A stretch of DNA of 64,000 nucleotides, from positions 647,545 to 711,544 of the forward strand of contig JACJZV010000001.1 in the NCBI GenBank assembly GCA_020635395.1, in the 5' to 3' direction. The DNA comes from Flavobacteriales bacterium. Its GTDB lineage: Bacteria; Bacteroidota; Bacteroidia; NS11-12g; UBA9320. The position numbers were made by a program, and so were the translations under genes. The notes beneath the pieces were generated by a model that did no database searches, had not been told where the DNA came from, and saw only the letters and a program-made list of their open reading frames with translations. Positions 3,777 through 52,101 of this stretch are shown in pieces; position 1 is the first letter of the stretch; the number at the start of each line of letters is the position of its first letter.

Positions 3777-4271
3777 TTATTCACTTCCCAATTTAAGCTC
3801 CTGCAACCGATTTATCAAGTTTTGGCCAAAAACTCCGGTGGCTATTACCACTCCGGCAGAGTCCACCAAATAGTTTTGAGGCAGGTAGTGGGGCAATTTC
3901 ATTTGGGTTAATAGCGGACTATCCCATTTGGCAGTGTCTATGGCATGTGTCGGCCATGTTATTCGGTCGTTTCTTATGGCTTTTTGCCACACCAAACTAT
4001 CGGTATCCAATGCGATGCTCACTATTTCAAAACCGTTTCCGTTTTTAAAGTTGGTGGTTTTGTATTGCTGATAGATGGTGTTTAATTCTCCGTTTTGTAT
4101 GCGGCATGGCAAACACCACGTACCCCAAAATTCTACCAAAATGAGTTTGCCTTTTATGCTGTCGGAAGCAATTTGATAATGCGTTTTTAGAGATTGAAAA
4201 TCGAAGGAGTGTTGGTTGTTTTGTGAAAAACTAAATAGCACTAAAAGCGGTATGACTGCCAACTTTTTCAT
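3777..4271 (-). CDS. TlpA-like thioredoxin-family thiol:disulfide oxidoreductase, secreted
   Basis: Signal peptide, a WCLPC CxxC motif, and about 160 aa. Confidence 0.7.
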   Translation of the reverse strand: MKKLAVIPLLVLFSFSQNNQHSFDFQSLKTHYQIASDSIKGKLILVEFWGTWCLPCRIQNGELNTIYQQYKTTNFKNGNGFEIVSIALDTDSLVWQKAIRNDRITWPTHAIDTAKWDSPLLTQMKLPHYLPQNYLVDSAGVVIATGVFGQNLINRLQELKLGSE

Positions 4272-5575
4272 TACAATCTTACAATGTCGGCACCGATAGC
4301 ATTCAACCGATGCTCGATGTTTTGATAGCCACGGTCTATTTGCTCAATGTTGTGAATGGTGCTGACCCCGTCGGCACTCATGGCGGCAATAAGTAGTGAA
4401 ACTCCTGCACGAATGTCGGGCGATGTCATTTGTATGCCTTTTAAATTTATGCGTCTGTCAAGCCCCATAACCGTTGCCCGGTGCGGGTCGCACAATATTA
4501 TTTGAGCACCCATGTCAATTAGGCTATCCACAAAAAATAAGCGGCTTTCAAACATCTTTTGATGTATCAACACATTGCCTTTTGCCTGCGTACACATTAC
4601 CAAGATAACACTCAACAAGTCAGGCGTTAGGCCAGGCCAAATAGCATCGGCAATGGTCATCATGCTGCCATCTATAAAACTTTCTATTTCGTAGTGTTCA
4701 TTATTAAACACCCGAATGTCGTCGTTTATTAATTCAAAATGCACACCTAATCGGCGGAAAGTTTCAGGGATTATTCCTAATTCCTTGTATTGCACATTTT
4801 TGATGGTTATGTCGGAATTGGTAAGAGCGGCCATGGCCATAAAACTGCCTATTTCAATCATATCGGGCAGCAAAGTGTGCGTGCATCCACCCAAATAATC
4901 AACCCCCTCAATGGTTAATAAATTTGAACCTACACCCGAAATTTTGGCTCCCATGCTGTTAAGCATTTTGCACAACTGTTGCAAATAGGGTTCGCAAGCG
5001 GCGTTGTATATGGTGGTAGTGCCTTTGGCCATGCTGGCGGCCATCACAATGTTGGCCGTTCCGGTCACCGATGCTTCATCCAGCAGCATATAGGTTCCGG
5101 TAAGTTTTTCGGCTTCTATCTCGTAAAAATTCTCATCGGGTAAAAAAGTAAATTTTGCACCCAAATTTTGAAACCCGATAAAGTGGGTGTCCAATCTTCG
5201 TCGGCCAATTTTATCACCACCGGGACTTGGGATATAACCTTTGCCAAAACGTGCCAACAAAGGTCCAATAATCATAACCGAACCCCGAATGCTTTTTGCT
5301 GTTTTTCTGAATTCGGCTGAGTTTAGATAGTCAAGGTCAATATTGTTTGATTCAAATCGGTAGTCGTTTTCGTTTAATTTTTCTACCGATACACCAAGAC
5401 CCCGCAACAGTTCAATAAGCCGGTTTACATCTCGAATGTTAGGAATGTTTTTTATAACAATTTCTTCGGGAGAAAGAAGCACAGCCGAAAGCACCTGAAG
5501 TGCCTCGTTTTTAGCTCCTTGCGGAATAATTTCGCCTTTAAGTTTTTTGCCTCCGGTTATTTTAAACGTTCCCAT
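4271..5575 (-). CDS. murA: UDP-N-acetylglucosamine 1-carboxyvinyltransferase
   Basis: 434 aa with an N-terminus (MGTFKITGGKKLKGEI..QGAKNEAL) typical of MurA/EPSP-fold enzymes. Confidence 0.85.
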   Translation of the reverse strand: MGTFKITGGKKLKGEIIPQGAKNEALQVLSAVLLSPEEIVIKNIPNIRDVNRLIELLRGLGVSVEKLNENDYRFESNNIDLDYLNSAEFRKTAKSIRGSVMIIGPLLARFGKGYIPSPGGDKIGRRRLDTHFIGFQNLGAKFTFLPDENFYEIEAEKLTGTYMLLDEASVTGTANIVMAASMAKGTTTIYNAACEPYLQQLCKMLNSMGAKISGVGSNLLTIEGVDYLGGCTHTLLPDMIEIGSFMAMAALTNSDITIKNVQYKELGIIPETFRRLGVHFELINDDIRVFNNEHYEIESFIDGSMMTIADAIWPGLTPDLLSVILVMCTQAKGNVLIHQKMFESRLFFVDSLIDMGAQIILCDPHRATVMGLDRRINLKGIQMTSPDIRAGVSLLIAAMSADGVSTIHNIEQIDRGYQNIEHRLNAIGADIVRL

Positions 5576-5581
5576 TTCTGC

Positions 5582-6253
5582 CTATCTGCGTTTAAAGTTT
5601 TTATTGTTGTTTCGGTTACCCCCGTTGTTGTTATTGTTTTTATTGTTGTTTTTCTTTACTTTATTTTTTGATTTTCCATTTTTGTTTCTAACTCGGTTTA
5701 CCTCAATATGAATCTGCAAATCATCTTCCGTCAGTTTTAATTGTCCTTTCGACAAGGTTCGCAAATGCTCAATTACGGCTATTTTGTCAAGGTTTTCATC
5801 ATTCCAGTTTCTTGATGAGTTTACCATAAAACTGGCGATATAGTTGATAAAAGCAGTTTGAATTTCTTTGTCTTTTATGTCTAACGCCTGCTCTACCATT
5901 GTTTGTAGATTGCGGCCATAAAAACGAAATTTTATGAGCTCATCTTTATATGGAATTGGTCGTGGCTTTTGCTCAATATGCTCGCGAACAGGCATGTTGT
6001 ATTCTGTGTCAACATCCAGTTTATAATCGCTGATAATGTATAGGTGATCCCAAAGTTTTTGTTTGTAATCTTCCAATGATTTTACCTCTGGGTTAAGGTT
6101 AATCATCACCTGAATCAATGTGTTAGCAAGCTCAGTGCGTTTGGCCTTATCTGGCAAATTGCAAACGTGCGTTACCATTTCTTGAAATGAGCGTCCATAC
6201 TCAGAAATGGTTAAAGGCTCCATTTGGGTATTATAATCCATGTTGTGTTCCAT
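5582..6253 (-). CDS. DUF4290-family protein with a C-terminal basic Asn/Lys-rich low-complexity tail
   Basis: Conserved Bacteroidetes family found next to murA. The tail is KNKVKKNNNKNNNNNGGNRNNNKNFKRR. Confidence 0.6.
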   Translation of the reverse strand: MEHNMDYNTQMEPLTISEYGRSFQEMVTHVCNLPDKAKRTELANTLIQVMINLNPEVKSLEDYKQKLWDHLYIISDYKLDVDTEYNMPVREHIEQKPRPIPYKDELIKFRFYGRNLQTMVEQALDIKDKEIQTAFINYIASFMVNSSRNWNDENLDKIAVIEHLRTLSKGQLKLTEDDLQIHIEVNRVRNKNGKSKNKVKKNNNKNNNNNGGNRNNNKNFKRR

Positions 6254-41851: not shown

Positions 41852-41977
41852 ATTATTGTATTTTAAAATTAACTATTTACACCAATTTGCCATTCGCAAT
41901 ATAGTTTTATTAAGTCACTCGATTTCAAATTTTTTTTGGTAGATTTTAAGATAACTGTTCTGCTCAGGTTGCAAGCT

Positions 41978-42020
41978 CCTCCTTATGGGGAGAGCCGCCT
42001 ACTCGTTTGGCAGCTACCCT
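41978..42020. repeat. Module W/Y copy (cctccttatggggagagccgcctactcg..cagctaccc) at the distal end of array 2
   Basis: The same 25-bp W module terminates the B elements at 46264, 47782, 48583 and 49305. Confidence 0.6.
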
Positions 42021-42601
42021 TCTTTTATCATTTTATAGATATTCGATTGATTAAACTGTTCTCTCCATTTCTCAATTCTATCAGTCTCACTTTCAATTTT
42101 TTGAATCTGAAATGATTCCACAAAACCAATTTTTAACCGAATTTCTTTTCCACCTTCATCTAATGGTATTTGAACAAAACAATCATGCTCATCACAAGTA
42201 ATTTTTGACTTAATTAAAGCTGAATCAATTTTGTTTGACAAGAATTCTTTTCCAAATTCCATTTGATAGGATAGCACTTTTAACGAATCTATTGTATTGT
42301 TACTGGTGTATATTGAATCTAATGATTGACGAGACAATTTGTGTTCTCCTAATCGTTTGTATATCTCGTATCTTAACAGGTTTGCCTTTTCATTTACTTG
42401 CATAACACAAAGGCCACAGGTGCAATAACCACACGTTTCAGCTTCCGTTATTTGCTTCAATGCTTTTTCGTTTTTTCCCTTAGTAACGTTTTTCTCTGCT
42501 TTATCAAGTAACATAAATGAATTCTGACCATAGCTCAACTGATAAAATACTATGAGTGTCACTATGGCGAAGGATCTGAGATATTTTACTTCTATTTTCA
42601 T
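42014..42601 (-). CDS. Hypothetical secreted protein (cassette-like array gene)
   Basis: Signal peptide. No recognised domain. Confidence 0.4.
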   Translation of the reverse strand: MKIEVKYLRSFAIVTLIVFYQLSYGQNSFMLLDKAEKNVTKGKNEKALKQITEAETCGYCTCGLCVMQVNEKANLLRYEIYKRLGEHKLSRQSLDSIYTSNNTIDSLKVLSYQMEFGKEFLSNKIDSALIKSKITCDEHDCFVQIPLDEGGKEIRLKIGFVESFQIQKIESETDRIEKWREQFNQSNIYKMIKEG

Positions 42602-42604
42602 TTT

Positions 42605-42660
42605 TTTAATTTCTAAGACGTTTTAGGGCTTTGTGTTCAGGCAGTTTCGCGGGCCATTGG
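42605..42660. repeat. Module C copy (cgttttagggctttgtgttcaggcagtttcgcggg)
   Basis: About 75% identical to 45293..45328 and 985..1022. Confidence 0.5.
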
Positions 42661-42697
42661 GGTGATTTAACCAGTGAACCACGGTAGGTGTTGTGAG

Positions 42698-43438
42698 TTA
42701 TTTTAACTTCTTAAATACATAATCCCAGTCTTTATAAGTCCAATCATTTTCACCGATAAATTCATGGTCCGCACATTCATAAATTTCATTTACATTGAAA
42801 ATCTGATTATTTTCTCTTGCTTCATCCCAAAGGTTCATTAGCCCAGATTTATCCTTTATTTTTTCAAACTTATTTTTAACATTTTTAAAACAAACTAAAT
42901 CTCCAAACTCTGAATTTCCACATGGATGATAATTTGAGTATTTACAGGATATACAGGTTTTAATTTCATAATTTTCAGGGAGCGTCTTTTGCATATCAAT
43001 CATAAGATATTCAAAATTATACATATTCCTTGCAAATAAATTCTCTCCAAAAACAGTCTTAAAAGTTGCTTCTTTTATAACCAACTCAACACCGTAATCT
43101 TTTTTATTTTCAATACTTTTTTCCAATTTTAAAATCAGTTCGCCATTAAAATTATTCTTTAAGTGGCCAATGATTATAGGTATCTCAATTTCTAATTCAA
43201 AATTTGTTAACTCATTGTAAGAATTAAATTCAAAATTACCCTTAGTTTCTTTTGTTTCTAATGACTCAAACTCACGTCCTTCAAAGATTGTATTCCTTAA
43301 TTCTAATCTTAAATTGCTTCCATGCGAAATAACCTCAGATTTGAGCGAACCGAATTTGTCAGTATATTTTACGAGATATTTTTTTAAACACATGCTCTTA
43401 CTCTTTATTTTTCTGGCATTAACTATACTGTAAAACAC
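42698..43438 (-). CDS. Hypothetical protein, AT-rich (cassette-like array gene)
   Basis: ORF only. Confidence 0.4.
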   Translation of the reverse strand: MFYSIVNARKIKSKSMCLKKYLVKYTDKFGSLKSEVISHGSNLRLELRNTIFEGREFESLETKETKGNFEFNSYNELTNFELEIEIPIIIGHLKNNFNGELILKLEKSIENKKDYGVELVIKEATFKTVFGENLFARNMYNFEYLMIDMQKTLPENYEIKTCISCKYSNYHPCGNSEFGDLVCFKNVKNKFEKIKDKSGLMNLWDEARENNQIFNVNEIYECADHEFIGENDWTYKDWDYVFKKLK

Positions 43439-43689
43439 GGAGAAGCCAAATCATCTAAACGTACTTTATTTAAAATTCTGTACGAATTTCTCCTCTTCAG
43501 TGCATGGTGTAAATATAGTTCGAAAGATAAGAAATTGATTGTCAATTTGATATAAATTATTTCCGTCTGGAACAGGTGCATCTAAATCGGGGAAGCCACT
43601 ATTCGGCGACGTCGCCAACATTGCTATTATTATCACAAAAGGTCAAGTTAGCACGTGTCCTCCAGTGGTGGAAACAGCCGTATTCTATA

Positions 43690-43775
43690 CCCCAATCCCG
43701 ATAGCTATCGGGATTGGGGTGAGAGGTACACTCTCATCATTTATGGGGAGAGCCGCCTACTTGATTATGTGCTGT
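43690..43775. repeat. Composite repeat made of a perfect 30-bp palindrome V (ccccaatcccgatagctatcgggattgggg), then a truncated B 3' half, then the W module
   Basis: The palindrome was read directly. The gaggtacactctcatcatttatggggagagccgcctacttg part matches the B-element 3' end. Confidence 0.7.
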
Positions 43776-43782
43776 TATTTTT

Positions 43783-44511
43783 TTATTCATATGGTTTCCA
43801 GTTTTTGTCTTTGGGTTCCTTGTAATTTGCAGGTCTTACATTTCGCTTCATTTCTTCATCACAAGCTCCGAACTCAATAAAGTTTTTTTGTGCCTGTCTT
43901 AACGAAATTGTGTTTGCTCCACCTTCATAATATGGGTCGTCAAGTTGGATTGGGTCATCTTCCCAAAAGCATACAGGGCAAATATCATAAGTTCCATTTG
44001 GTTTCTCCGTAAACGTTTTATGTCCACAACAAGGACAAGCAAATTTTGAATTAACTGTCAATATTAGTAATGCCTTTTCCAATGCATCTTTGTCAAAACC
44101 GATTGATGGTCTTGTTGCAACCCAGCGTTCTTTTATATACTCTGGCAATGCGTTTATTGATTGGTCATCATCAATAATAACATAGTTCTGTCCCTCTCCT
44201 TTTTTTTCAACCCATTCTTTAATTTCGGTTCCTCTGTCTAATAATTGACTTATTTCTGTTTTGTTATTTAGTTTTGATATTGTTTCAAAATTCAATCCTC
44301 TTAATCTAAAAATCTCTTTCCATTTAGTTTCGTCATAATTTATTCTATGAGTTGTTGTCAAAACTATCGAAGCATTTGTCCTTTTGTGAAGGATTAATAA
44401 GTTTTCAAGTGCTTTTTTATTTAGTTTCATAAATCCGTCAGAATATATTTCTGCCTGTCGCCAAGTAGGTGTCGTTTCCAAAACTCCGTCTATGTCTAAA
44501 AGTATTGTCAT
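43783..44511 (-). CDS. HAD-like hydrolase domain fused to a cysteine-rich CPCC domain
   Basis: N-terminal DxD HAD motif (LLDIDGVL) and a C-terminal CPCCGHKTF...CPVCFWEDD cysteine-rich CPCC-type module. Confidence 0.5.
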   Translation of the reverse strand: MTILLDIDGVLETTPTWRQAEIYSDGFMKLNKKALENLLILHKRTNASIVLTTTHRINYDETKWKEIFRLRGLNFETISKLNNKTEISQLLDRGTEIKEWVEKKGEGQNYVIIDDDQSINALPEYIKERWVATRPSIGFDKDALEKALLILTVNSKFACPCCGHKTFTEKPNGTYDICPVCFWEDDPIQLDDPYYEGGANTISLRQAQKNFIEFGACDEEMKRNVRPANYKEPKDKNWKPYE

Positions 44512-44682
44512 TCTGTTTTGTGTCGGTCTTTATAATAGCACATAACTTTTTGCCGCTTGCCGCAGTGGGGGATTTCGAAGCACTTCACTTTCAACCAAGC
44601 ACAAATGTTGATAGAATCACAGCACTTGATTTAACCACGTCAACCCCCATTGCGGCAAACGACTGTGCCTGTTGCACAACTC
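44512..44682. repeat. ORF-less structured spacer element with a 12-bp inverted repeat (ccgcaGtggggg / cccccaTtgcgg) and module Z (atttcgaagcac)
   Basis: Read directly. No credible ORF. It lies between repeat A2 and the CPCC gene. Confidence 0.5.
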
Positions 44683-44832
44683 AAAAGTAACTCTATTTTT
44701 CAACTATTTCAAAAAAGTTGCAATTTTAATCTTCTTATTACCAGCGAGTTAATTGTGTTTTGTTTTTGAGGTAAAAATCTAAAATAGCGTTGAGGGTAGT
44801 TGTGCAACAGCTACCCGTGTTAGCGGTAGTGT
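44683..44832. repeat. Cassette-associated repeat A2, about 98% identical to 1..150
   Basis: Direct comparison. It is bounded by the inverted 10-mers GTTGCACAAC (44671..44680) and GTTGTGCAAC (44799..44808). Confidence 0.85.
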
Positions 44833-45267
44833 TTACGTCATGTGTTTAAGGAAAAGTGTAATGGTTTCATATGTCAATTCGTTATCCTTGATTATATAGT
44901 TGTCAAACCAGTCGTTGTTACTTAGTGTTTGTGCTACCAACCAAGATTCTTTGCCAAGATATAAAAATCGTTTGCCGCCAACTTGTATTAACCATGAACC
45001 AAAATCCTTCTCGTGATAAGATTCTTTTGTAATCACCTTGTCTGTTAGTCGTAATAAGCAAAAGTCGAAAAGAAATTTATTCCAATTGCTTGAAACTTTT
45101 CTTTCAATGTCAAACGCATAACTTATAGCCTTGTCAATCGTATTATCAGTTGCATTGTCAACCAATTCTGCTTTTCGCCCAAATTTGTCAGTAAGAGTAA
45201 CTTTAAAAACTCCGTTCGAAATTTCGTCAATTTTAGTTGTCCAACCTGGTAGTGATTTTGTGTTCAT
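44833..45267 (-). CDS. Hypothetical protein (cassette-like array gene)
   Basis: ORF only. Confidence 0.4.
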   Translation of the reverse strand: MNTKSLPGWTTKIDEISNGVFKVTLTDKFGRKAELVDNATDNTIDKAISYAFDIERKVSSNWNKFLFDFCLLRLTDKVITKESYHEKDFGSWLIQVGGKRFLYLGKESWLVAQTLSNNDWFDNYIIKDNELTYETITLFLKHMT

Positions 45268-45269
45268 AG

Positions 45270-45400
45270 TGTCTGTCTAACATTACCGCCAACGGTTTCG
45301 GGCTTTGCGTTCGGGCGGGTTTCGGAGCACAAAGTTTCAATTTATTACTAAAGTTTATTAGAAGCACAAAGCTCCATCCCGATAGCTATCGGGATTGCAC
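45270..45400. repeat. Composite repeat made of module C (ttaccgccaacggtttcgggctttgcgttcgggcgggtttcggagcac) plus palindrome V copy (atcccgatagctatcgggatt)
   Basis: Related to 965..1045 and 43690..43719. Confidence 0.6.
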
Positions 45401-45440
45401 GTCAACCCGCATGACGCAACCCGTGTTATAGCCAGTTTTT

Positions 45441-45797
45441 CTATTCATTGGTCAACATTACTATTGTCTTATTTTTTGTCTCTGCACATTTATTTTCTGT
45501 CGGCATATTAGTTTTTATTTTCAATATGTCGTCATTTCTTTTAATGCTAAAGTTCATAACATTATAGATTGCGTCATTTAAGTAATATTCAAATAATTTG
45601 GTCGTGTCATTTCCATAATTTGCAAAAAATTCAAATCTGTAATTGTCAATCTCAGTCTGATAAACGCTATAAAAAATGTGTTCATTAGGTTCGTTTGAAA
45701 TTGTTCTCGTCACAATGAGGTTGTTCTGTTCAAAATAGGAACAGCCAACTATGAATAGTAAAAATATCAATGCATATTTTGGTATTTTTTTATTCAT
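45441..45797 (-). CDS. Hypothetical lipoprotein (cassette-like array gene)
   Basis: Signal peptide with the lipobox LFIVGCS. Confidence 0.4.
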   Translation of the reverse strand: MNKKIPKYALIFLLFIVGCSYFEQNNLIVTRTISNEPNEHIFYSVYQTEIDNYRFEFFANYGNDTTKLFEYYLNDAIYNVMNFSIKRNDDILKIKTNMPTENKCAETKNKTIVMLTNE

Positions 45798-46047
45798 ATA
45801 CTTTCGCTCCTTTAAAAATGTCTACAAATGTTGACCAGTCTGGTTTGTCCGCATTTACATTTAGTTTCATATTGTCGTAATAGCCTTGAATGTCTTCAGT
45901 AAACGCACCCAACGCTTCCAGAAAATCGGTCAAAGTTTTGTTTTCCCAATTTTCAGGATTGGCTAAAAAGTCTTTGCGTAATAAGCCAAGAAACTTAATG
46001 AAATTTTGTCTGTCCGTTACTTTAAAGTCGTTAAGTGTGTCGTTCAT
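45790..46047 (-). CDS. Hypothetical small protein (85 aa). It overlaps the next gene by 8 bp with no intervening repeat
   Basis: ORF only. It forms a two-gene unit with 45441..45797. Confidence 0.35.
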   Translation of the reverse strand: MNDTLNDFKVTDRQNFIKFLGLLRKDFLANPENWENKTLTDFLEALGAFTEDIQGYYDNMKLNVNADKPDWSTFVDIFKGAKVYE

Positions 46048-46165
46048 AAAATTGGCTATAACGTGCCAGCACTAAATGTTGTGCCACTTTTTTCACTATT
46101 TGTTGTCAGTATAAATATACAATTTTATTTCTAATTCCCTGTCTGTCAGGCATAACATTTAGTGC

Positions 46166-46292
46166 ACGTGTGTGCCGCCAATGGCAAACACCCTCCAAGT
46201 TTAGTTGAAAGGAGAGTGATAACCAATAGTTATGTTGGATTAGCTAATGAGGTGTACACTCCTCATTTATGGGGAGTTCCGCCTACTCGATT
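46166..46292. repeat. B-family structured repeat copy B1
   Basis: gtgtgccgccaatggcaaacaccctcc..aggagagtgataaccaatagttatgttggattagctaatgaggtgtacactcctcatttatggggag..cgcctactcg. Internal hairpins are ataac/gttat, ttagctaa and aatgagg/cctcatt. Confidence 0.8.
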
Positions 46293-46298
46293 ATGGGC

Positions 46299-47513
46299 TT
46301 ACAATTCAATTTTCCAAAGACCATTTTTGCCTCCGACAATTACGCTTCCCTTAGGATCGATTGCAAGGTAAAAAGCACTTTCAATGCCAGCAAATAAGTC
46401 CTTTGACCTAAAAGTATAATATTCCCCATTACTTGTCCGAATACCGAAGTCTGGATAACCCATCCAACTTGTTGTATACCAAATATTAGATTTTTCATCA
46501 ATAACTATAGAATTTGGTAATGGAATTACCGTTCCACAGTCTGGTTTTAATTTTTCATTGAAAGATTCAGATTGAATATCCAACCCTAATCCAATAAATG
46601 ATTTACTAAACCCAGGGTTTTGACCATAATGTGTACTATTATATAGATTAATACAAGGGATATTTATAACAGAATTTTTTTCGAAAACACTTCCAAATTG
46701 CTGAATACTGTCAAATGTGAAAGTTTTCCACTCATTATTTTTAATTCTAAGTAATTCAGCTTGTGAGGCTGCATTTATTCCATTACCTTTAGTTGCATAG
46801 AATCTGACCCAAACGGAGTTATCACTGGTTATAGTTATTCCATCAAGTCTTTTACCTACTGGTAGTCCATTATTTTCTGTGAATGTTAAAACATCGGAAG
46901 CTGAAATTAAACTCAATCCATTTTCCTCCCAGTTGGATCCAGGCTGAGGCTGGGTCGTATGACCTACCCAAACATTGTCAGATTGGTCAACTGCAACATA
47001 TTTCGTATGGTTATTTAGGAGACCTTCATTTTTTGAAAAGAGTTGCATTGAATTCCAGTCATATCTGCACAAACCCTTGGGAGTAGCCATCCATAATCGT
47101 CCTTTGCTGTCTTCATCAACTCCTGTAATAGTGTCTGAAGGTAATCCATCTTCTTTGCCAATATGTAACCATTTTTGTTGGGCAAAATCGAAATAATCTG
47201 CACCTTTATTCGTTCCAACCAGAATTGCCCCTGATACCTTGGAAACTGACAGATGATTAATTCGCCCGTTTGCTAAATTATGGGTTAAGTTTTCTTTTTT
47301 TTCAAAAATAGAGAAGTCGTTAAAGTTTTTACTATTCCAGCAGCTATCCCAAGTAAATTCGGACACGACAACTAGAGGTTTAGATGGTTCCTCTTTTTCT
47401 TTACAAGATAATGCCAAAATAGAAAAAGAGATAACTAAGAATGTAATTGTTTTATTCATATTTCTGTTTTTAGTTCTGACTAACGCAAAATTATGTTTCT
47501 GATTACCAAGCAA
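46299..47513 (-). CDS. Lipoprotein with two-component-regulator-propeller (Reg_prop-like) beta-propeller repeats
   Basis: Lipoprotein signal and repeated ..DG..W.GT..GL..YD blades. Confidence 0.45.
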   Translation of the reverse strand: MLGNQKHNFALVRTKNRNMNKTITFLVISFSILALSCKEKEEPSKPLVVVSEFTWDSCWNSKNFNDFSIFEKKENLTHNLANGRINHLSVSKVSGAILVGTNKGADYFDFAQQKWLHIGKEDGLPSDTITGVDEDSKGRLWMATPKGLCRYDWNSMQLFSKNEGLLNNHTKYVAVDQSDNVWVGHTTQPQPGSNWEENGLSLISASDVLTFTENNGLPVGKRLDGITITSDNSVWVRFYATKGNGINAASQAELLRIKNNEWKTFTFDSIQQFGSVFEKNSVINIPCINLYNSTHYGQNPGFSKSFIGLGLDIQSESFNEKLKPDCGTVIPLPNSIVIDEKSNIWYTTSWMGYPDFGIRTSNGEYYTFRSKDLFAGIESAFYLAIDPKGSVIVGGKNGLWKIEL

Positions 47514-47682
47514 TCACAAAGTATCATTTTTTACCTCTTTTTCAGAGGTTTTTTCGACTTCGTTGGCCTCCAAAATTAATAAAGAAAATTCAGAAATGAG
47601 AAATTGAATTAGACTCATTTCGGAATTTTTATTTTTGGATTGCCCATAACGGTGAGTGTACGCGTAGTTTGCACGTTTAGGG

Positions 47683-47816
47683 CTACACCGTGTGTGTGTG
47701 CCGCCAATGGCAAACACCCTCCAGAAAGGAGAGTGATAACCAATAGTTATGTTGGATTAGCTAATGAGGTGTACACTCCTCATTTATGGGGAGAGTCGCC
47801 TACTCGTTTGTGTGTA
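47683..47816. repeat. B-family repeat copy B2. It has an 11-bp deletion relative to B1 and is flanked by the imperfect inverted repeat ctacaccgtgtg / tgtgtgtag
   Basis: Direct comparison. Its 3' flank encodes the last 4 codons of the upstream ORF. Confidence 0.8.
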
Positions 47817-48414
47817 GTTTTTGTTCTTTATATACTTTCGTTATTTCGCTTTTTAATTCATTGTACCTTTTAGGTTCGGTCAGTTTTTTCAGTGAATTAA
47901 TTGTGATTGAGCTCTGACTTCTTTCATAGTTGTCAAGTCGATATGTTGGTAGAACATAAAAATCCCATTGCTCCATTTTTAAAGGGTCAATTGTTTTTTG
48001 GTCTTTGTGTTTTAAATGACAGAACACATAAAGGTCAGCGTGTCTTTTGGGTTCTCCACGTTGCATATTTGTTTCTGCATCCCAATATCTTGCAGGTTTA
48101 ATTGAAAATGAAATAGTCGAAAAGTTCTTTTGATTCCAACTTTGAATATAAGCGGCAGATTTGACTTCTATTTTTATTCCGTCGATAGTTGTCAAGTCAT
48201 ATGCATCCCATTCATCTCTTAAATTTTCAGGATTTAGTCCAACTGCTGTCCCGACGATAAACTCTGCAAATCTTCCGCGAGTTGCATTGCTCAAAATGTC
48301 AGAAACGCTCCAACGCCAAAAGTCCAATAGGTTAAAATTTGTTTCCTTACCATTGTCGGTAAGGGTTTCATTTCCGTTTTTGGGGCTTGCTTTTATTTCT
48401 TTGAGTTCGTTCAT
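47800..48414 (-). CDS. Hypothetical protein with a PD-(D/E)xK-like nuclease motif
   Basis: D..(x)n..IEVKS arrangement (DAYDLTTIDGIKIEVKSAAY). Weak. Confidence 0.35.
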   Translation of the reverse strand: MNELKEIKASPKNGNETLTDNGKETNFNLLDFWRWSVSDILSNATRGRFAEFIVGTAVGLNPENLRDEWDAYDLTTIDGIKIEVKSAAYIQSWNQKNFSTISFSIKPARYWDAETNMQRGEPKRHADLYVFCHLKHKDQKTIDPLKMEQWDFYVLPTYRLDNYERSQSSITINSLKKLTEPKRYNELKSEITKVYKEQKLHTNE

Positions 48415-48482
48415 TTCTAATTACACACGACGGTTCGTATATGGTGTCGTAGCATCCCGCAGGGTGCTATGTATTATATACC

Positions 48483-48618
48483 ATGTGTGTGCCGCAAATG
48501 GCAAACACTCTCCAAATTTAGCTGAAAGGAGGGTGATAACCAATAGTTATATCGGATTAGTTGATGAGGTGCACACTCCTCATTCGTGGCGAGAGCCGCC
48601 TAATGGATTGTGTGTATT
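48483..48618. repeat. B-family repeat copy B3, the most diverged
   Basis: About 85% identical to B1. Confidence 0.7.
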
Positions 48619-49047
48619 ATCTGTTAAAATTCTGTTTTTTGGAATCAGCTGATGCATTACGAGTAAAAATAATACACCTTTAGTAAAACCATTTGGAATA
48701 AACTTTACAAACGAGTCGTAAATATCAAATTGAAATCCTAATCCAGCTCCTATTATTAAAGAAATTATTATGGAAGAAATTAAGCAAACAATGCCATAAA
48801 TGCTACCAAATATTAAAGCTTTTGATAGCGATATTCCGAGATTATCTTTTGAAATATTCCTTACTAACAAATGGGTTACGAAAGCGGTAATTATTAAAAA
48901 TAAAAACTCTAAAACCATCTCATAGATGAAAAAATAGATATTGAATATTCTAGTCATTTCAAATTCGGTAAATATTAATTTTCTAATCAAATCTATTCCA
49001 ATTGAGATTAATCCAAAAAACAATATTGCTCTAAAAACCTTTGTCAT
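48580..49047 (-). CDS. Small integral membrane protein (4 TM). Its last 11 codons are encoded by the B3/W repeat
   Basis: Hydrophobic profile. The C-terminus THNPLGGSRHE is read through the repeat. Confidence 0.4.
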   Translation of the reverse strand: MTKVFRAILFFGLISIGIDLIRKLIFTEFEMTRIFNIYFFIYEMVLEFLFLIITAFVTHLLVRNISKDNLGISLSKALIFGSIYGIVCLISSIIISLIIGAGLGFQFDIYDSFVKFIPNGFTKGVLFLLVMHQLIPKNRILTDNTHNPLGGSRHE

Positions 49048-49211
49048 TCTTTACAGTTTATCTTAGTGTTATGCATACGCTGCGATTACGCATAACGGTA
49101 TAGGGTAAGAAACGTAGGGCATTTCGAAGCAATTTCCTGTTCACCGAAACGGAACTTGCTAAGAGCCCAAAACTTGCGGAAACCACTGCCCGCCCTATGT
49201 TTTATACCCAT

Positions 49212-49345
49212 TGTGCGTGCCGCCAATGGTAAACGCCCTCCAAATTTAGTTGAAAGGAAAGTGATAACCAATAGTTATGTTGGAATAGCTAAATAGGTAC
49301 ACTCTCCTCATTTATGGGGAGAGCCGCCTACTCGATTAGGAGCAT
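49212..49345. repeat. B-family repeat copy B4
   Basis: About 90% identical to B1. Confidence 0.8.
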
Positions 49346-49350
49346 CATAA

Positions 49351-49854
49351 TTATGAAATCCAAATCATTTCATTGCTTACAACTCGCCATTTTCCGAGGC
49401 GTTTTTTTAATTCAACAACATTTCCAGACGAGCTTAAGTTACCTTCGTAATATCCACAATAAACACTGGCTTTGTTTCCAGACACAATTACTTTTGAAAT
49501 ATTGAATGAAAGAAAATCAATTTCACTTTTTTCTTCGTCTGTCATATTATTGAACATTGAAATGTCCTTTACTTTGGGAGAATTCCTTTTTAGCTTATCC
49601 AATACAAATGGTAAGGATTGATTGAGAGAATCGTCTAAACTTAGAAAATAGTAGGTGGCTTTTTCTTTGGTTGCAGATGCGTTTTCTTTAAATAATGCTT
49701 TGAATGCAGCAACTTCAATTTTAACCAATGTCGTCTTTGGGATATTGTTATTCTGCAAACCCTCTTTTATATTTCCTGTCTTTTGGCTGAATACTGTGCC
49801 AGAAAGAAGTAAGAGAAGTGTCGGAAACACAAGGACTTTGAGTATTAAATTCAT
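49351..49854 (-). CDS. Hypothetical secreted protein (cassette-like array gene)
   Basis: Signal peptide. Confidence 0.4.
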   Translation of the reverse strand: MNLILKVLVFPTLLLLLSGTVFSQKTGNIKEGLQNNNIPKTTLVKIEVAAFKALFKENASATKEKATYYFLSLDDSLNQSLPFVLDKLKRNSPKVKDISMFNNMTDEEKSEIDFLSFNISKVIVSGNKASVYCGYYEGNLSSSGNVVELKKRLGKWRVVSNEMIWIS

Positions 49855-50063
49855 TTGATTGCCATTTAAATTATTTCTGTCGCATTCTAGAAAGTCAAAT
49901 TCTATCTGGTGTTGGTGTAATTGCTCCTAACGTATTCGTGTATGAGTAGTGGCGGATTTTAACCCACTAAACTATCAGATAACATCGACCTTTGATTTAT
50001 AATTTTATGTTTCTATTAAGCACCAAACCCGCTATTGCAAATGTGCTGTTAGCGGTAGTTTTT

Positions 50064-51143
50064 CTATTCTGTAAGTTCATAAACAGATATTGTTTTGTTG
50101 TCTGCCGTTAAGAAACAACCTGTCCCAACGCTGTATTCGTTTACTTTCAAAATTTCGTCTTTAAAAGCGATTTGTCCATCCGATGAAATTACCGAAAAGC
50201 CACCTTCGTCAGAAACTGTGATGAACGAATTCATTGCTCTATTGAAATACATTTTCGAACTAAGGATATTTTTGTCAACAATCTGAATTTTCTTACCTAT
50301 CTCAACATTGTCCCCGCTGATTTTGAGAAAATGAATTTCACAAGGAGAGTCTGCTGTTGAATTTTCATCTCCTTCGGTAAATGGATTATACGCAATAGCA
50401 ATAGTATCATTGTCAATCCAACATGTCGCTCTGTTTTCATGTTCCCAACCACCTATTCTCAAATCTGATATTCTATTACTTGTGATAAAATTTTCAATAT
50501 CATAGACATTATAGCAATCGTATGAACCCCAAGCCCAACCTGCACTCAAAAATTTCTTCTGATTAGGCGAAATAAAAAGTTTGCCAAAAAAATAGTCGTA
50601 TGGTCTCGGCCAAGGTAATTTGTTGTCCTCAGAATGTTTTTTATAAAAATCAATGTGTCTTTCTTCCGCCCCTTCTTCAATCAAGGATTTTGAAGCAGTC
50701 AGGATTTGTCTGGTGTCAAGATTCATGATTTGAATATGATTCCATGCTTCACCAAAAATTAAATGGGGCACTCTTTCTTGATTTTTATAAAGTACTATTG
50801 GATAAGTTGAAATGTCAGCGTGATAGTCTTCTCTCCACAAGTGCAAGGCATGATACTTGTTGGGATAATGAACAAAACCATGTCTTTTGAAGTCATTAAC
50901 TACAACTACAATTTCGTCCATTGTGTAAATTGAAGTCTTTGCTGTTAAGTCAAAACCTCCGTCTGAATATCCAAAATTGCTTTTTACTGAAAATAAATGC
51001 TTTCCCTTTTTGTCGTCCAAATTAAACCGAATGACATTACCAGAACTCATCAACATAACAACTTCATTTGACTTTGATAAAGTCGCAGTCATAATAGTTT
51101 CGTCAGTGTCAAAAGTGATGTCGTAAATTTTATTTGTTTTCAT
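50064..51143 (-). CDS. Hypothetical protein, beta-rich and possibly beta-propeller-like (cassette-like array gene)
   Basis: ORF only. Confidence 0.4.
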   Translation of the reverse strand: MKTNKIYDITFDTDETIMTATLSKSNEVVMLMSSGNVIRFNLDDKKGKHLFSVKSNFGYSDGGFDLTAKTSIYTMDEIVVVVNDFKRHGFVHYPNKYHALHLWREDYHADISTYPIVLYKNQERVPHLIFGEAWNHIQIMNLDTRQILTASKSLIEEGAEERHIDFYKKHSEDNKLPWPRPYDYFFGKLFISPNQKKFLSAGWAWGSYDCYNVYDIENFITSNRISDLRIGGWEHENRATCWIDNDTIAIAYNPFTEGDENSTADSPCEIHFLKISGDNVEIGKKIQIVDKNILSSKMYFNRAMNSFITVSDEGGFSVISSDGQIAFKDEILKVNEYSVGTGCFLTADNKTISVYELTE

Positions 51144-51317
51144 TCTAATCGTCTATTCGCTTGGTAGCTTTAAAATTACCGCTAACGGTTAGTATATGAA
51201 AAGTAGGCGATTTAGAAGCTCTAATTTTTCGGTTAAACACAAATTTTAATGCGAGCCATAACCTATGAATTTATCGCTGTTTCGCCTATTTTTTATATAC
51301 AGTGTTGTAGTGCGTTT

Positions 51318-51803
51318 TTATTCATTATTAGTTGTCGTAAACACTTGATAGAAGTATGACAGGTTATCAGGCTCTCCATTTGCAAATCGTTTAAAAGCTT
51401 TGGCAATCGGGTCGCAAACAGTTCCGTTTGGTAGTTTAATTACAATTGGCATCATATTTACTCCTTCTGGAAGGTTCGCGTCTTCTTGCTTAATCCACCG
51501 TCCATTTGCATTCTCAATCATTACTTGTCCAGAATAGCAACCAGCAACAAAAATTGTCTCAGCAAAATCGTCAACGTTCCATTCTTTACTAAAGTTGTCC
51601 AGAAATTGGTCAACAAAATTCAGCGAGTCAACTGAATAATCTAACTCAATTCCTTCGTTTTCTTTAACAGCTCCACTAAAAAACTCACTCAACCCTTTTC
51701 CATTTTCAGGGTTTGGTTCTAATTGTAAGTTTAGTCCGCGGTTTGGAAAGACTTGTTTTGGCTTTTCTTCTTTCTTTCCGAAAAGGTTTTTAAATATGCT
51801 CAT
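51318..51803 (-). CDS. Hypothetical protein. It is the first gene of array 2
   Basis: ORF only. Confidence 0.4.
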   Translation of the reverse strand: MSIFKNLFGKKEEKPKQVFPNRGLNLQLEPNPENGKGLSEFFSGAVKENEGIELDYSVDSLNFVDQFLDNFSKEWNVDDFAETIFVAGCYSGQVMIENANGRWIKQEDANLPEGVNMMPIVIKLPNGTVCDPIAKAFKRFANGEPDNLSYFYQVFTTTNNE

Positions 51804-51811
51804 CTGTTTTT

Positions 51812-51880
51812 TTTAATGCCCTATAACATCCGTATATGCCCAATACAATGTTCCTATTACGCATATTTCCATTATCTACG
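51812..51880 (-). promoter_or_regulatory. Conserved array-head element H2, about 80% identical to 2862..2930
   Basis: See H1. Same spacing from the first start codon. Confidence 0.5.
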
Positions 51881-52101
51881 AAACCAAAACAGGGTTTGAA
51901 ATTTAATGTATCCGTTTTCATTTTTTTTGGCTTCGTTCCATTCAGTCAAATATAGAAACTTTTTTTAGAAATTATCCAAAATGCCAATAGCACCTTGCGG
52001 TTTGTAACAAGGCCAAAGAAAAATGCCATTCTGTCACCATTTTAGGTTAAAAAGTGGTTGGCAAAGTAGTTGATATTGCCCAAACATTAATTCATAATCG
52101 G

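Follow-up and report, generated by a model that had tools for sequence, protein, structure and literature searches.

Spliceosomal introns are considered to descend from group II introns, and tiny introns that have no catalytic core of their own and depend on factors in trans represent the key transitional form, known so far, to our knowledge, only from euglenid plastids. The group III introns of these plastids presumably depend on trans-acting factors, and bacterial ORF-less introns rely on IEPs in trans (PMC4424553). Group IIC-attC introns target TTGT/T in R'' of the attC bottom strand and lie antisense to the cassettes (PMC7923331, PMC3001079), and fragments of group II introns that keep domains V/VI and the 3' end occur in cassette arrays, e.g. 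UHB.F1 and H.ha.F1/F2 (PMC7923331). Integron elements have seldom been reported in Bacteroidota (PMC9024848), to which the present locus adds a well-resolved cassette array.

The window analysed was a 64,000-nt stretch of an uncultured Flavobacteriales genome, in which an earlier note made from the sequence alone had described a repeat family, B, as a structured element, possibly a terminator or insulator between cassettes. The last word was correct: B is set in an array of integron cassettes that lacks an integrase. A search of the window's ORFs revealed no recombinase domain, and the adjacent intI and attI of a complete integron were lacking; the array is therefore a CALIN. A recombinase-associated array of the rAID-1 type was rejected, as there is no adjacent XerD-like recombinase and the cassettes follow classical attC rules. 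The features are as follows, a slash marking the point of insertion:

41950..51835, minus strand: integron-type cassette array of about 11 cassettes, no integrase (CALIN)
41976..42007, plus strand: p41, the shortest fragment, last ~32 nt of putative domain VI with the 3' end CTACTCGTT
43719..43765, plus strand: p43, putative 5'-truncated intron fragment with linker GUGAGAGG, domain VI and 3' end CTACTTGAT
46056..46299, minus strand: attC of c46 (ORF 46299-47513), interrupted by B1; R' GTTATAG at 46062-46056
46170..46291, plus strand (intron sense; antisense to cassettes): B1, putative mini-intron copy, 122 nt, splitting R'' of cassette c46
47644..47816, minus strand: attC of c47 (End_IV-like ORF 47800-48414), interrupted by B2; R' GTTATGG at 47650-47644
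47692..47808, plus strand: B2, 117 nt, with 9-nt loop deletion, 5' (GT)2 expansion and end CTACTCGTT
48425..48616, minus strand: attC of c48 (ORF 48580-49047), interrupted by B3; R' GTCGTGT at 48431-48425
48487..48608, plus strand: B3, 122 nt, end CCTAATGGAT
49090..49344, minus strand: attC of c49 (ORF 49351-49854), interrupted by B4; R'' TGCTCCTAA/(T)C, R' GTTATGC at 49096-49090
49215..49336, plus strand: B4, 122 nt, 5' end GCGTG, flanks exactly TTGT/.../T
49241..49271, minus strand: outward, cassette-sense Bacteroidota promoter-like motif TTG-N20-TAAATTTG in B4, a motif match only

Hairpins of the attC type (expected length ~57-141 nt; 56-148 nt here once B is removed) with R''-L''/L'-R' arms lay directly 3' of co-oriented ORFs with short 5' UTRs, with R'' 0-10 nt from the stop codon; the asymmetry of arm lengths, judged by eye only, was ambiguous. 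R'' (RYYYAAC) was complementary to R', which is composed of G and the 5' end of the same cassette (TTRRRY...). Of the B-free cassettes, c50 and c45 had an R'' complementary to this 5' end at 10/10 and c44 at 9/10; of the B-bearing cassettes, c49 and c43 likewise had 10/10 and c46 had 9/10, and these three always had one added base ahead of the final C of R'' (for c49, whose 5' end is GTTAGGAGCA, 10/10 plus one extra base). No such match was found in c42. In c47, R'' is CTACACACAA(A)C and lies within the 3' end of the End_IV-like ORF. The same End_IV cassette occurs with different neighbours in other metagenomes (L026/L027, L028-L035), where homology begins at G/TTGTGTG, R'' passes directly into the attC arm, attC is uninterrupted and B2 is missing. 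Other contigs encoding proteins of these cassettes came from the same organism (L013-L020) or held B-free homologues, and neither the array nor B was found at the syntenic loci of relatives.

The B family comprises four full copies in the window (117-122 nt) and two truncated ones, all confined to 7.5 kb; a 20-mer from the family occurred 5 times against 0.00 expected. The four full copies lie essentially where the earlier note had placed them, with boundaries refined on the plus strand, and just 3' of ORFs as it had stated; these ORFs lie on the minus strand, where two run a few codons into B before their stop. Pairwise identity among B1-B4 is 82-96.5% (85 to 95% in the note), so that the copies have diverged by 4-18%. 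The truncated copy reported beside palindrome V, which adjoins p43 on its 5' side, is real and was refined to 43719-43765; that at 41976-42007 had been overlooked. B1, which starts GTGTGCCGCCAATGG and ends CGCCTACTCGAT, is flanked by GCACGT on the 5' side and TATGGGC on the 3' side, and its boundary may slide by 1 nt because a T is shared at both sides. B2 had been credited with an 11-bp deletion removing one arm of a stem; the indel is 9 nt and takes loop bases of the CACTCTCC/GGAGGGTG hairpin, leaving both arms, and 4 bases, (GT)2, have been added at the plus-strand 5' end. B3 is the most diverged copy. The four copies share one architecture at four unrelated attC sites.

In each case B splits R'' at AA/C. 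On the strand opposite to that of the cassettes, all four copies take the form ...GT/element/T, so that NNGT/T, the group IIC-attC target pattern in its usual orientation, is present in 4/4 full copies and B4 has TTGT/T itself; the 3' flank is T at both p41 and p43. In silico deletion of B (122/122/117/122 nt) gave single canonical attC hairpins of 56-133 nt, like those of the B-free controls in the array (51313-51180, 50057-49925, 45434-45287), with lengths of 133 nt for c49 (-46 kcal/mol), 70 nt for c48 and 122 nt for c46. B is not itself a recombination site, and its removal brings back canonical attC hairpins: the earlier suggestion of such a site holds insofar as B lies inside attC and fails insofar as B, an insertion, breaks up the R'' core. 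Origin by attC-derived duplication or by integrase 'top-strand' recombination at R'' was also rejected, since the resemblance of B ends to attC arms did not rise above shuffles, a complementary L' partner is missing, and the additional base at the junction is at odds with such an origin.

For comparison of the termini, 13 real class C introns were retrieved from seven bacterial classes, and 13/13 end GTG-AGAGG-hairpin-CC-CTACTCGAT. Like these introns, the B copies start GTGTGCC....ATGG and finish with a hairpin, an unpaired A and CTACTCGAT, the last of these intact in B1 and B4 and with 1-3 base differences in the other four copies. Matches of the 5' consensus GTGYGCCNNNNATGG in the window were confined to the first base of the four full copies. 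The boundary pattern 5'-GUGYG ... AXX(X)XRAY-3' is present, with a GTGTG start in 3/4 full copies (the GCGTG of B4 is one transition away), a RAY end in 4/6 copies (B2 and p41 end GTT instead) and the A at -7 in all full copies. A covariance model of domain VI only (R1) was built from the 13 introns with no B sequence included; its top match in the 128 kb searched was p43 (23.1 bits, E 2.3e-4, over the full model length), and its scores on B1-B4 were weak (E 0.22 and 9.5), all E-values being rough because the calibration was short. The domain VI hairpin with bulged A was thus recognised via p43, which an nhmmer search with a B profile recovered at E 8e-13 as a homologue of the weakly scoring B1-B4. 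Fragment p43 keeps the linker GUGAGAGG between domains V and VI, and B1-B4 have lost it.

The remaining parts of an intron are missing. Rfam RF00029 and the group II D1D4 families gave no domain V or D1-D4 match on 221 nt even at E<=10, and the best match of the domain V consensus in the window was 20/35, which is chance level. No RT/maturase ORF was found in the window and no ORF lies inside the 122-nt B. Comparison of the 5' 76 nt of B with domain I in three complete introns of class C detected no colinearity past about nt 16, and the middle ~55 nt of B showed no significant similarity to it. No full-length parent intron was found within the window. B has no domain V and no reverse-transcriptase gene, most of its domain I is absent, and it cannot be a ribozyme.

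B most likely derives, by internal deletion, from a class C (attC-targeting) group II intron. Demonstrated for this reading are the attC context, the insertion point and orientation, the intron-type termini with domain VI, and the missing catalytic parts. Original entry was, we infer, by retrohoming: a parent class C intron would have inserted into the single-stranded bottom strand of attC at the R'' core, antisense to the cassettes, and in one derivative domain I would then have been largely deleted, together with domains II-V and the reverse-transcriptase ORF. What this derivative retained would be ~76 nt from the 5' terminus (GUGUGCC....AUGG...) and ~46 nt from the 3' terminus, the latter corresponding to domain VI with an unpaired A at -7 and CUACUCGAU. 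This 117-122-nt form would now occupy four different cassettes, with p43 and p41 as putative 5'-truncated fragments of a longer parent, and its copies are presumably unable to splice on their own. Spread of one identical deletion form to four sites may have come about by trans mobilisation, as in euglenid "group III" introns, or by gene conversion, and either may apply. Our literature search found no description of bacterial intron derivatives so small and multi-copy. Searches for further B copies by DNA pattern returned 12 matches at chance level in genome contigs (the one inspected, L001, lay inside an ORF), 1 chance match in metagenome contigs and 0 in viral contigs, and blastn against plasmids and phages returned 0.

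Other identities fit the same observations less well. A MITE of an attC-targeting DNA transposon, of the IS1111-attC/IS110 (guide-RNA) or IS200/IS605 type, is a very improbable source of B. IS1111-attC elements (ISPa21, ISPst6, ISKpn4) likewise insert near the attC 5' end, antisense to the cassettes (PMC3001079, PMC11187229), hairpins lie near both B ends, and the invariant core ATAAC-TATTG-GTTAT holds the R'' motif in both its strands, a content conceivable for a guide RNA; against this, the hallmark 11-13-bp subterminal inverted repeats of IS1111 (PMC11187229) are absent between the B ends, for want of which the IS1111 type was rejected, as are their 7/3-bp extensions, the DEDD transposase or any other, and the seekRNA, and the B termini agree with group II introns instead. 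Just as slender is the case for a cis-acting cassette element, be it a terminator/insulator, a 3'-UTR structure, an sRNA or a long conserved attC like VCR. The constant position after the stop codon suits such an element, as do the fold z-scores (-1.5 to -3.4, both strands) and the short local hairpins, which are present as the earlier note had described. Its nested structure did not survive as a single consensus fold, however, because minimum free energy structures vary among copies and the predicted pairs contain no compensatory change. The checks it had proposed spoke the same way: Rfam gave 0 window matches at the gathering score and chance-level hits only at E<=10, and covariation among B copies was nil or no higher than in controls. 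With the permissive Rfam scans also empty and alifold finding 0 compensatory pairs on both strands, a structured sRNA or riboswitch was rejected; of the small structured RNA once suggested, descent from a group II intron stands and a free-standing RNA does not. Nor was a terminator-like site found in B on the coding strand, which speaks against the terminator or insulator proposal; the array has 10 terminators against 6.7 +/- 3.0 in shuffles, i.e. no excess, and a scan for terminators or sigma-70 promoters showed no enrichment. Further, B-free cassettes in the array and B-free homologues are complete ORF+attC units, and the B ends are not significantly attC-like (72-154/200 shuffles score equally). 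Descent from a plus-strand protein-coding gene, in the frame VCAANGKHPP(SLV)ERRVITNSYVGLANEVYTPHLWGEPPTRL, was rejected as effectively refuted and is the least credible reading of all, even though the frame is open in B1-B3 and the 9-nt indel of B2 keeps it: variable sites fall 11/8/10 by codon position, the synonymous to nonsynonymous ratio (6:20) is like that of the other five frames, Pfam and NCBIfam gave no matches, no cluster among 5.8 billion was matched in a word-indexed search, and 1.84 billion proteins searched exhaustively with a profile yielded 3 weak matches to repeat proteins; one of these came from a eukaryotic assembly that has no DNA similarity.

Given an intron derivative, what divides the remaining explanations is how the short form spread. 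That the copies are dead relics, spread at the DNA level only, is given about an even chance. Full-length introns would formerly have occupied all these attC sites, and a single deletion would have been copied among them by ectopic gene conversion through the ~76- and ~46-nt terminal homologies or, alternatively, have recurred identically by RT template jump. The longer or different derivatives p43 and p41 in the same array, the confinement of all copies to 7.5 kb and the undetectable structural selection favour this history; it is weakened by the shortness of the homology arms, the lack of any full-length copy left in the array and the need for at least four full-length insertions that arose independently and were then all converted. 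Alternatively, B may be a non-autonomous mini-intron that is functional, comparable in bacteria to the 'group III' introns of euglenids: its 122-nt RNA of 5' boundary, domain I stub and domain VI would be spliced and reverse-spliced with catalytic RNA and IEP supplied in trans by a full-length class C intron at another locus of the genome, and the single architecture at four unrelated attC sites would thereby be explained. The size of B, 117-122 nt, with a 5' boundary and domain VI and no domain V, is that of published group III introns, and dependence on IEPs in trans is already known for bacterial ORF-less introns (PMC4424553). The upper stem of domain VI even contains one compensatory AU<->UA switch, but the helix statistic was reached in 366/500 shuffles, not above controls; moreover, a helper intron did not turn up, the sequences of the copies differ by 4-18% and the termini of B2, B3 and B4 have decayed, and the collections searched yielded no copy elsewhere. 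We also know of no bacterial precedent for trans-complementation of an element without the EBS-bearing part of domain I. This functional mini-intron is accordingly regarded as unlikely, and a shade less likely still is the claim that B is a 'group III-like' ~120-nt non-autonomous retroelement that was, or still is, spliced and mobilised into attC in trans.

Whichever route was taken, R'' now lies ~120 nt away from the rest of attC, and therefore integrase-mediated excision should suffer; from its position, the B insertion probably impairs IntI-type excision and freezes these cassettes. The motif TTG-N20-TAAATTTG of B4 recurs in B3 (48543-48513) and, with one mismatch, in B1 (46226-46196), and is deleted in B2; its position and direction correspond, as a motif match only, to Pout of group IIC-attC introns (PMC3001079), and in these three copies it could drive the downstream cassette. 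Natural attC sites split between R'' and L'' offer a test of the disruption that cassette excision tolerates, and the B-bearing array a test of whether, where no integrase is present, cassettes are stabilised by intron relics or receive promoters from them. With a multi-copy bacterial derivative of 120 nt, trans splicing and mobilisation of minimal introns could also be tested in bacteria. If such mobilisation is true, a group III-like bacterial class would escape surveys based on RT genes or domain V; if the copies are dead relics, a 'mystery repeat' becomes intron debris, a tidy annotation.

Among known systems, B is like group IIC-attC introns (e.g. S.ma.I2) in its place at R'' of the attC bottom strand, the TTGT/T target and the antisense orientation, in parting a gene from its attC and occurring in CALINs (PMC7923331, PMC3001079), in its 5' GUGYG start, domain VI, unpaired A and CUACUCGAU 3' end, and in a possible outward promoter in the 5' region (PMC3001079). 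It is unlike these ~1.9-kb introns in being 117-122 nt long, with no domain V, no recognisable domain I core and no IEP/RT; membership of the class C-attC lineage rests on IEP phylogeny, by which B, without an IEP, cannot be placed. Fragments p43 and p41 are of the same kind as UHB.F1 and H.ha.F1/F2; those reported fragments are single, 5'-truncated and keep domain V, whereas B1-B4 have both termini and one common internal deletion in four copies. B matches the group III introns of euglenid plastids in size and content (~90-120 nt, domain I-type 5' elements and domain VI only, no domain V, multi-copy; PMC4424553), but those interrupt protein genes of plastids, lie in the sense orientation and have been shown to be spliced, while B is bacterial and sits in recombination sites antisense to genes; no evolutionary link is implied beyond common group II derivation. 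Also comparable is an ORF-less class C intron of ~605 nt found in Persicobacter plasmid CP012862.1 (L039 2077-2681), which like B is without an IEP, has the 5' end GTGTGCC.AGCATGG and shows an almost superimposable domain VI architecture. Unlike B, ORF-less class C introns retain the full ribozyme (domains I-VI, with domain V), of which B retains about one fifth.

All ORFs between ~40.4 and 51.8 kb lie on the minus strand, and in this uncultured Flavobacteriales MAG the segment flanked by an aldehyde dehydrogenase gene and grpE-dnaJ contains about eleven of them, small, co-oriented and for the most part without a known function. Their spacers are imperfect hairpins flanked by ...AAC and GTTA... 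boxes. Complementarity between the R'' box behind each ORF and G plus the 5' end of its own cassette was treated as the decisive test for integron cassettes, and the result was positive both in cassettes free of the B repeat (c50, 10/10; c45, 10/10; c44, 9/10) and in cassettes carrying it (c49, 10/10; c43, 10/10; c46, 9/10). No recombinase domain was found in any ORF of the window, and the array was therefore classed as a cluster of attC sites without integrase (CALIN), an element type seldom reported in Bacteroidetes (PMC9024848).

41950-51835, minus strand: integrase-less cassette cluster, ~11 cassettes
47800-48414, minus strand: End_IV-like (PF26887) cassette protein, 204 aa

The array is absent from related genomes (GrpE 70-73% identical), where housekeeping genes occupy its position in the order Aldedh-DUF4290-EPSPS-thioredoxin-GrpE (loci L021, L022, L024 and L025). 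DUF4290/EPSPS are inverted in the window (4271-6253), and the array thus sits at a rearrangement breakpoint. A Bacteroidota promoter-like motif, TTG-N22-TATATTTG (51924-51954, minus), was observed between grpE and the boundary of the first cassette (GGATG/TTATAGGGC near 51830; slash, boundary), ~150 nt upstream of that cassette's ORF; with no integrase/Pc module present, it could be the promoter of the array.

The B family described in the earlier note is real, with four full copies (B1 to B4, 117-122 nt) essentially where they had been placed and the partial copy near 43.7 kb (p43) present; a second partial copy, absent from that note, was located at 41976-42007 (p41, ~42.0 kb). Full copies are 82-96.5% identical pairwise, and each follows a minus-strand stop codon, in agreement with the position 3' of ORFs first reported. 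The indel of B2 is indeed a deletion, of 9 nt instead of 11, and hairpin loop bases are removed; both stem arms, including the one supposedly lost, are kept. The proposed nested fold was not reproducible: MFE structures vary by copy and strand, z-scores reach only modest values (-1.5 to -3.4) and compensatory pairs are lacking in the consensus folds of either strand. Limited collections, searched with exact patterns or blastn, gave no further copies, which provides no measure of rarity.

B is an insertion parting R'' from the rest of the attC site, as established by in silico deletion and by uninterrupted homologues. Removal of 122, 122, 117 and 122 nt yielded single hairpins of 133, 70, 56 and 122 nt, respectively, with pairing between R'' and the R' side and a resemblance to the B-free sites of the array. 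In homologues of the End_IV-like cassette R'' (CTACACACAAC) continues straight into the attC arm, whereas in the window B comes after this same R'' and the arm resumes only past B. Insertions occupy one fixed position, in one orientation, in six different cassettes, and all B-bearing cassettes have one extra base ahead of the terminal C of R'' (...TAA[T]C-GAG...). The junction slides by one shared T; read on the bottom strand (window plus), all four copies have the form ...GT/GTGTGCC...CTACTCGAT/T..., and the flank of B4 is exactly TTGT/T.

For comparison, class C group II introns were retrieved with a domain V probe, which was taken as valid because its 100% matches adjoin annotated ltrA genes in 479 plasmids. 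All 13 introns obtained (Bacillota, Proteobacteria, Cyanobacteria and Bacteroidota) end in DV-GTG-AGAGG-[hairpin]-CC-CTACTCGAT, slightly diverged in Calothrix, and the three complete ones start with GTGCGCCAGGCATGGC or GTGTGCCCAGCATGGGC. B starts with GTGTGCCGCCAATGGC and ends in a hairpin (GAGG/CCU lower stem, 7-9-bp upper stem, 4-nt loop) followed by an unpaired A at -7 and then CTACTCGAT. The first bases of the four B copies are the sole places in the window where the 5' consensus GTGYGCCNNNNATGG matches. The nonamer CTACTCGAT is found in exact form nowhere but at the last base of B1 and of B4, and versions of it with one mismatch end B2, p43 and p41. A domain VI covariance model built from the 13 real introns only, run over both strands of the whole window, gave its best match, over the full model length, at p43 (43719-43765; 23.1 bits, E ~2e-4), to which B1-B4 are unambiguously homologous. 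An ORF-less class C group II intron of ~605 nt was noted in a Bacteroidota plasmid whose record is unannotated, Persicobacter sp. JZB09 plasmid CP012862.1 (locus L039, 2077-2681), with GTGTGCCCAGCATGGGC at its 5' end, then DV, DVI and CTACTCGAT; its domain VI is nearly superimposable on that of B, the upper stems differing in sequence and both being paired.

In its site, orientation, termini and domain VI, B is thus like a class C intron, and it has lost the catalytic parts; we hold with good confidence that it derives from a class C group II intron and is inserted in R'' of attC. No domain V was found (no Rfam match; best ungapped match to a DV consensus, 20/35), no domain I core was recognisable (similarity to the three complete introns is undetectable past ~nt 16) and there is no RT ORF. 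B can be neither a self-splicing ribozyme nor an autonomous retroelement. Derivation of p43 from a longer parent is indicated by its DV-DVI linker GUGAGAGG, lost from B1-B4 at the deletion junction.

A parent intron of the IIC-attC type would have entered attC hairpins by retrohoming, and a deletion derivative would then have arisen. Since four unrelated attC sites are occupied by the same short form, it is this form that was propagated, whether by trans-mobilisation, by gene conversion of full-length copies from one deleted copy, or by a recurrent RT template jump; helix statistics among the copies are not above controls, and no helper intron is visible.

The earlier reading of B as related to cassettes, recombination sites and RNA-derived structure was right in spirit and wrong in substance. 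Rejected candidates were a structured sRNA, terminator or insulator, a long conserved attC or attC-derived duplication, an IS1111-type MITE and a coding remnant, and for the array, the rAID type. One plus-strand frame is open through B1-B3 (46170-48631), with the 9-nt indel of B2 in frame; neither codon positions nor synonymous sites give a signal, 1.84 billion proteins include no homologue, and the frame is probably a chance, if odd, occurrence.

Independently of the R'' test, homology of the End_IV-like cassette in other metagenomes starts exactly at G/TTGTGTGTAATT, with 91-95% protein identity and the cassette following different neighbours. Across Bacteroidota, Ignavibacteria and Balneolaceae MAGs (L026-L035) the protein is 75-95% identical, unusually strong conservation for a cassette gene, and its gene is always surrounded by small ORFs in the same orientation whose attC sites belong to one family (R'' CACACAAC, R' GTTGTGTG, 3' arm ...CCATATACTAACC/GTT); PADLOC gave no match to it. 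Two copies of a perfect 20-nt palindrome, ATCCCGATAGCTATCGGGAT, are present against 0 expected, one at 43695-43714, where it directly adjoins p43 and is lengthened to 30 nt, the other at 45376-45395, looped out in the B-free attC of c45; the palindrome may represent another small hairpin element invading attC sites. A ~25-bp AT-rich imperfect hairpin (CCAAAAATAAAAATTCCGAAATGAG...CTCATTTCTGAATTTTCTTTATTAATTTTGG; 47555-47630, minus) lies downstream of a cassette boundary in the long 5' leader of a Reg_prop beta-propeller gene and is followed by a Bacteroidota promoter-like box at 47493. Cassette 45441-46047 (minus) has two ORFs that overlap by 8 nt, one for DUF7660 (85 aa) and one for an unknown protein of 118 aa, a layout typical of toxin-antitoxin-like pairs. 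The 321-nt spacer 44512-44832 (minus) contains two nested attC-like repeats (CTGTTGCACAACT ... AGTTGTGCAACAG) and a complete site of 132 nt with GTTATGT at its end; it may be a cassette that lacks an ORF, or else an attC that was rearranged. Outside the array, a 616-aa protein (1051-2901, minus) with AAA_15/AAA_21 (AbiEii-like ATPase) and, below the Pfam cut-off, DUF4435 has an OLD/Gabija-like defence-type architecture amid housekeeping genes.

[quoted passage not shown] With R'' and L'' now ~120 nt apart, integrase recognition is likely impaired and the cassettes should be frozen. B3 and B4 contain a perfect outward Bacteroidota promoter-like motif, TTG-N20-TAAATTTG, pointing into the downstream cassette and ending 26 nt from the intron 5' end (one mismatch in B1, deleted in B2); we estimate that roughly 8% of such elements would have one by chance. 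Its place and direction are those of Pout in IIC-attC introns (PMC3001079), in B as a motif match. B shares site, orientation, boundary and domain VI with these introns but lacks their ribozyme and IEP, and is therefore a derivative, not a member. According to a review, ORF-less introns are rare in bacteria and surveys depend on RT or DV; such surveys would overlook an element like B. Intron fragments reported from integron arrays are single, 5'-truncated and keep DV (PMC7923331), whereas here one deletion form is present in four copies, beside two different 5'-truncated fragments.
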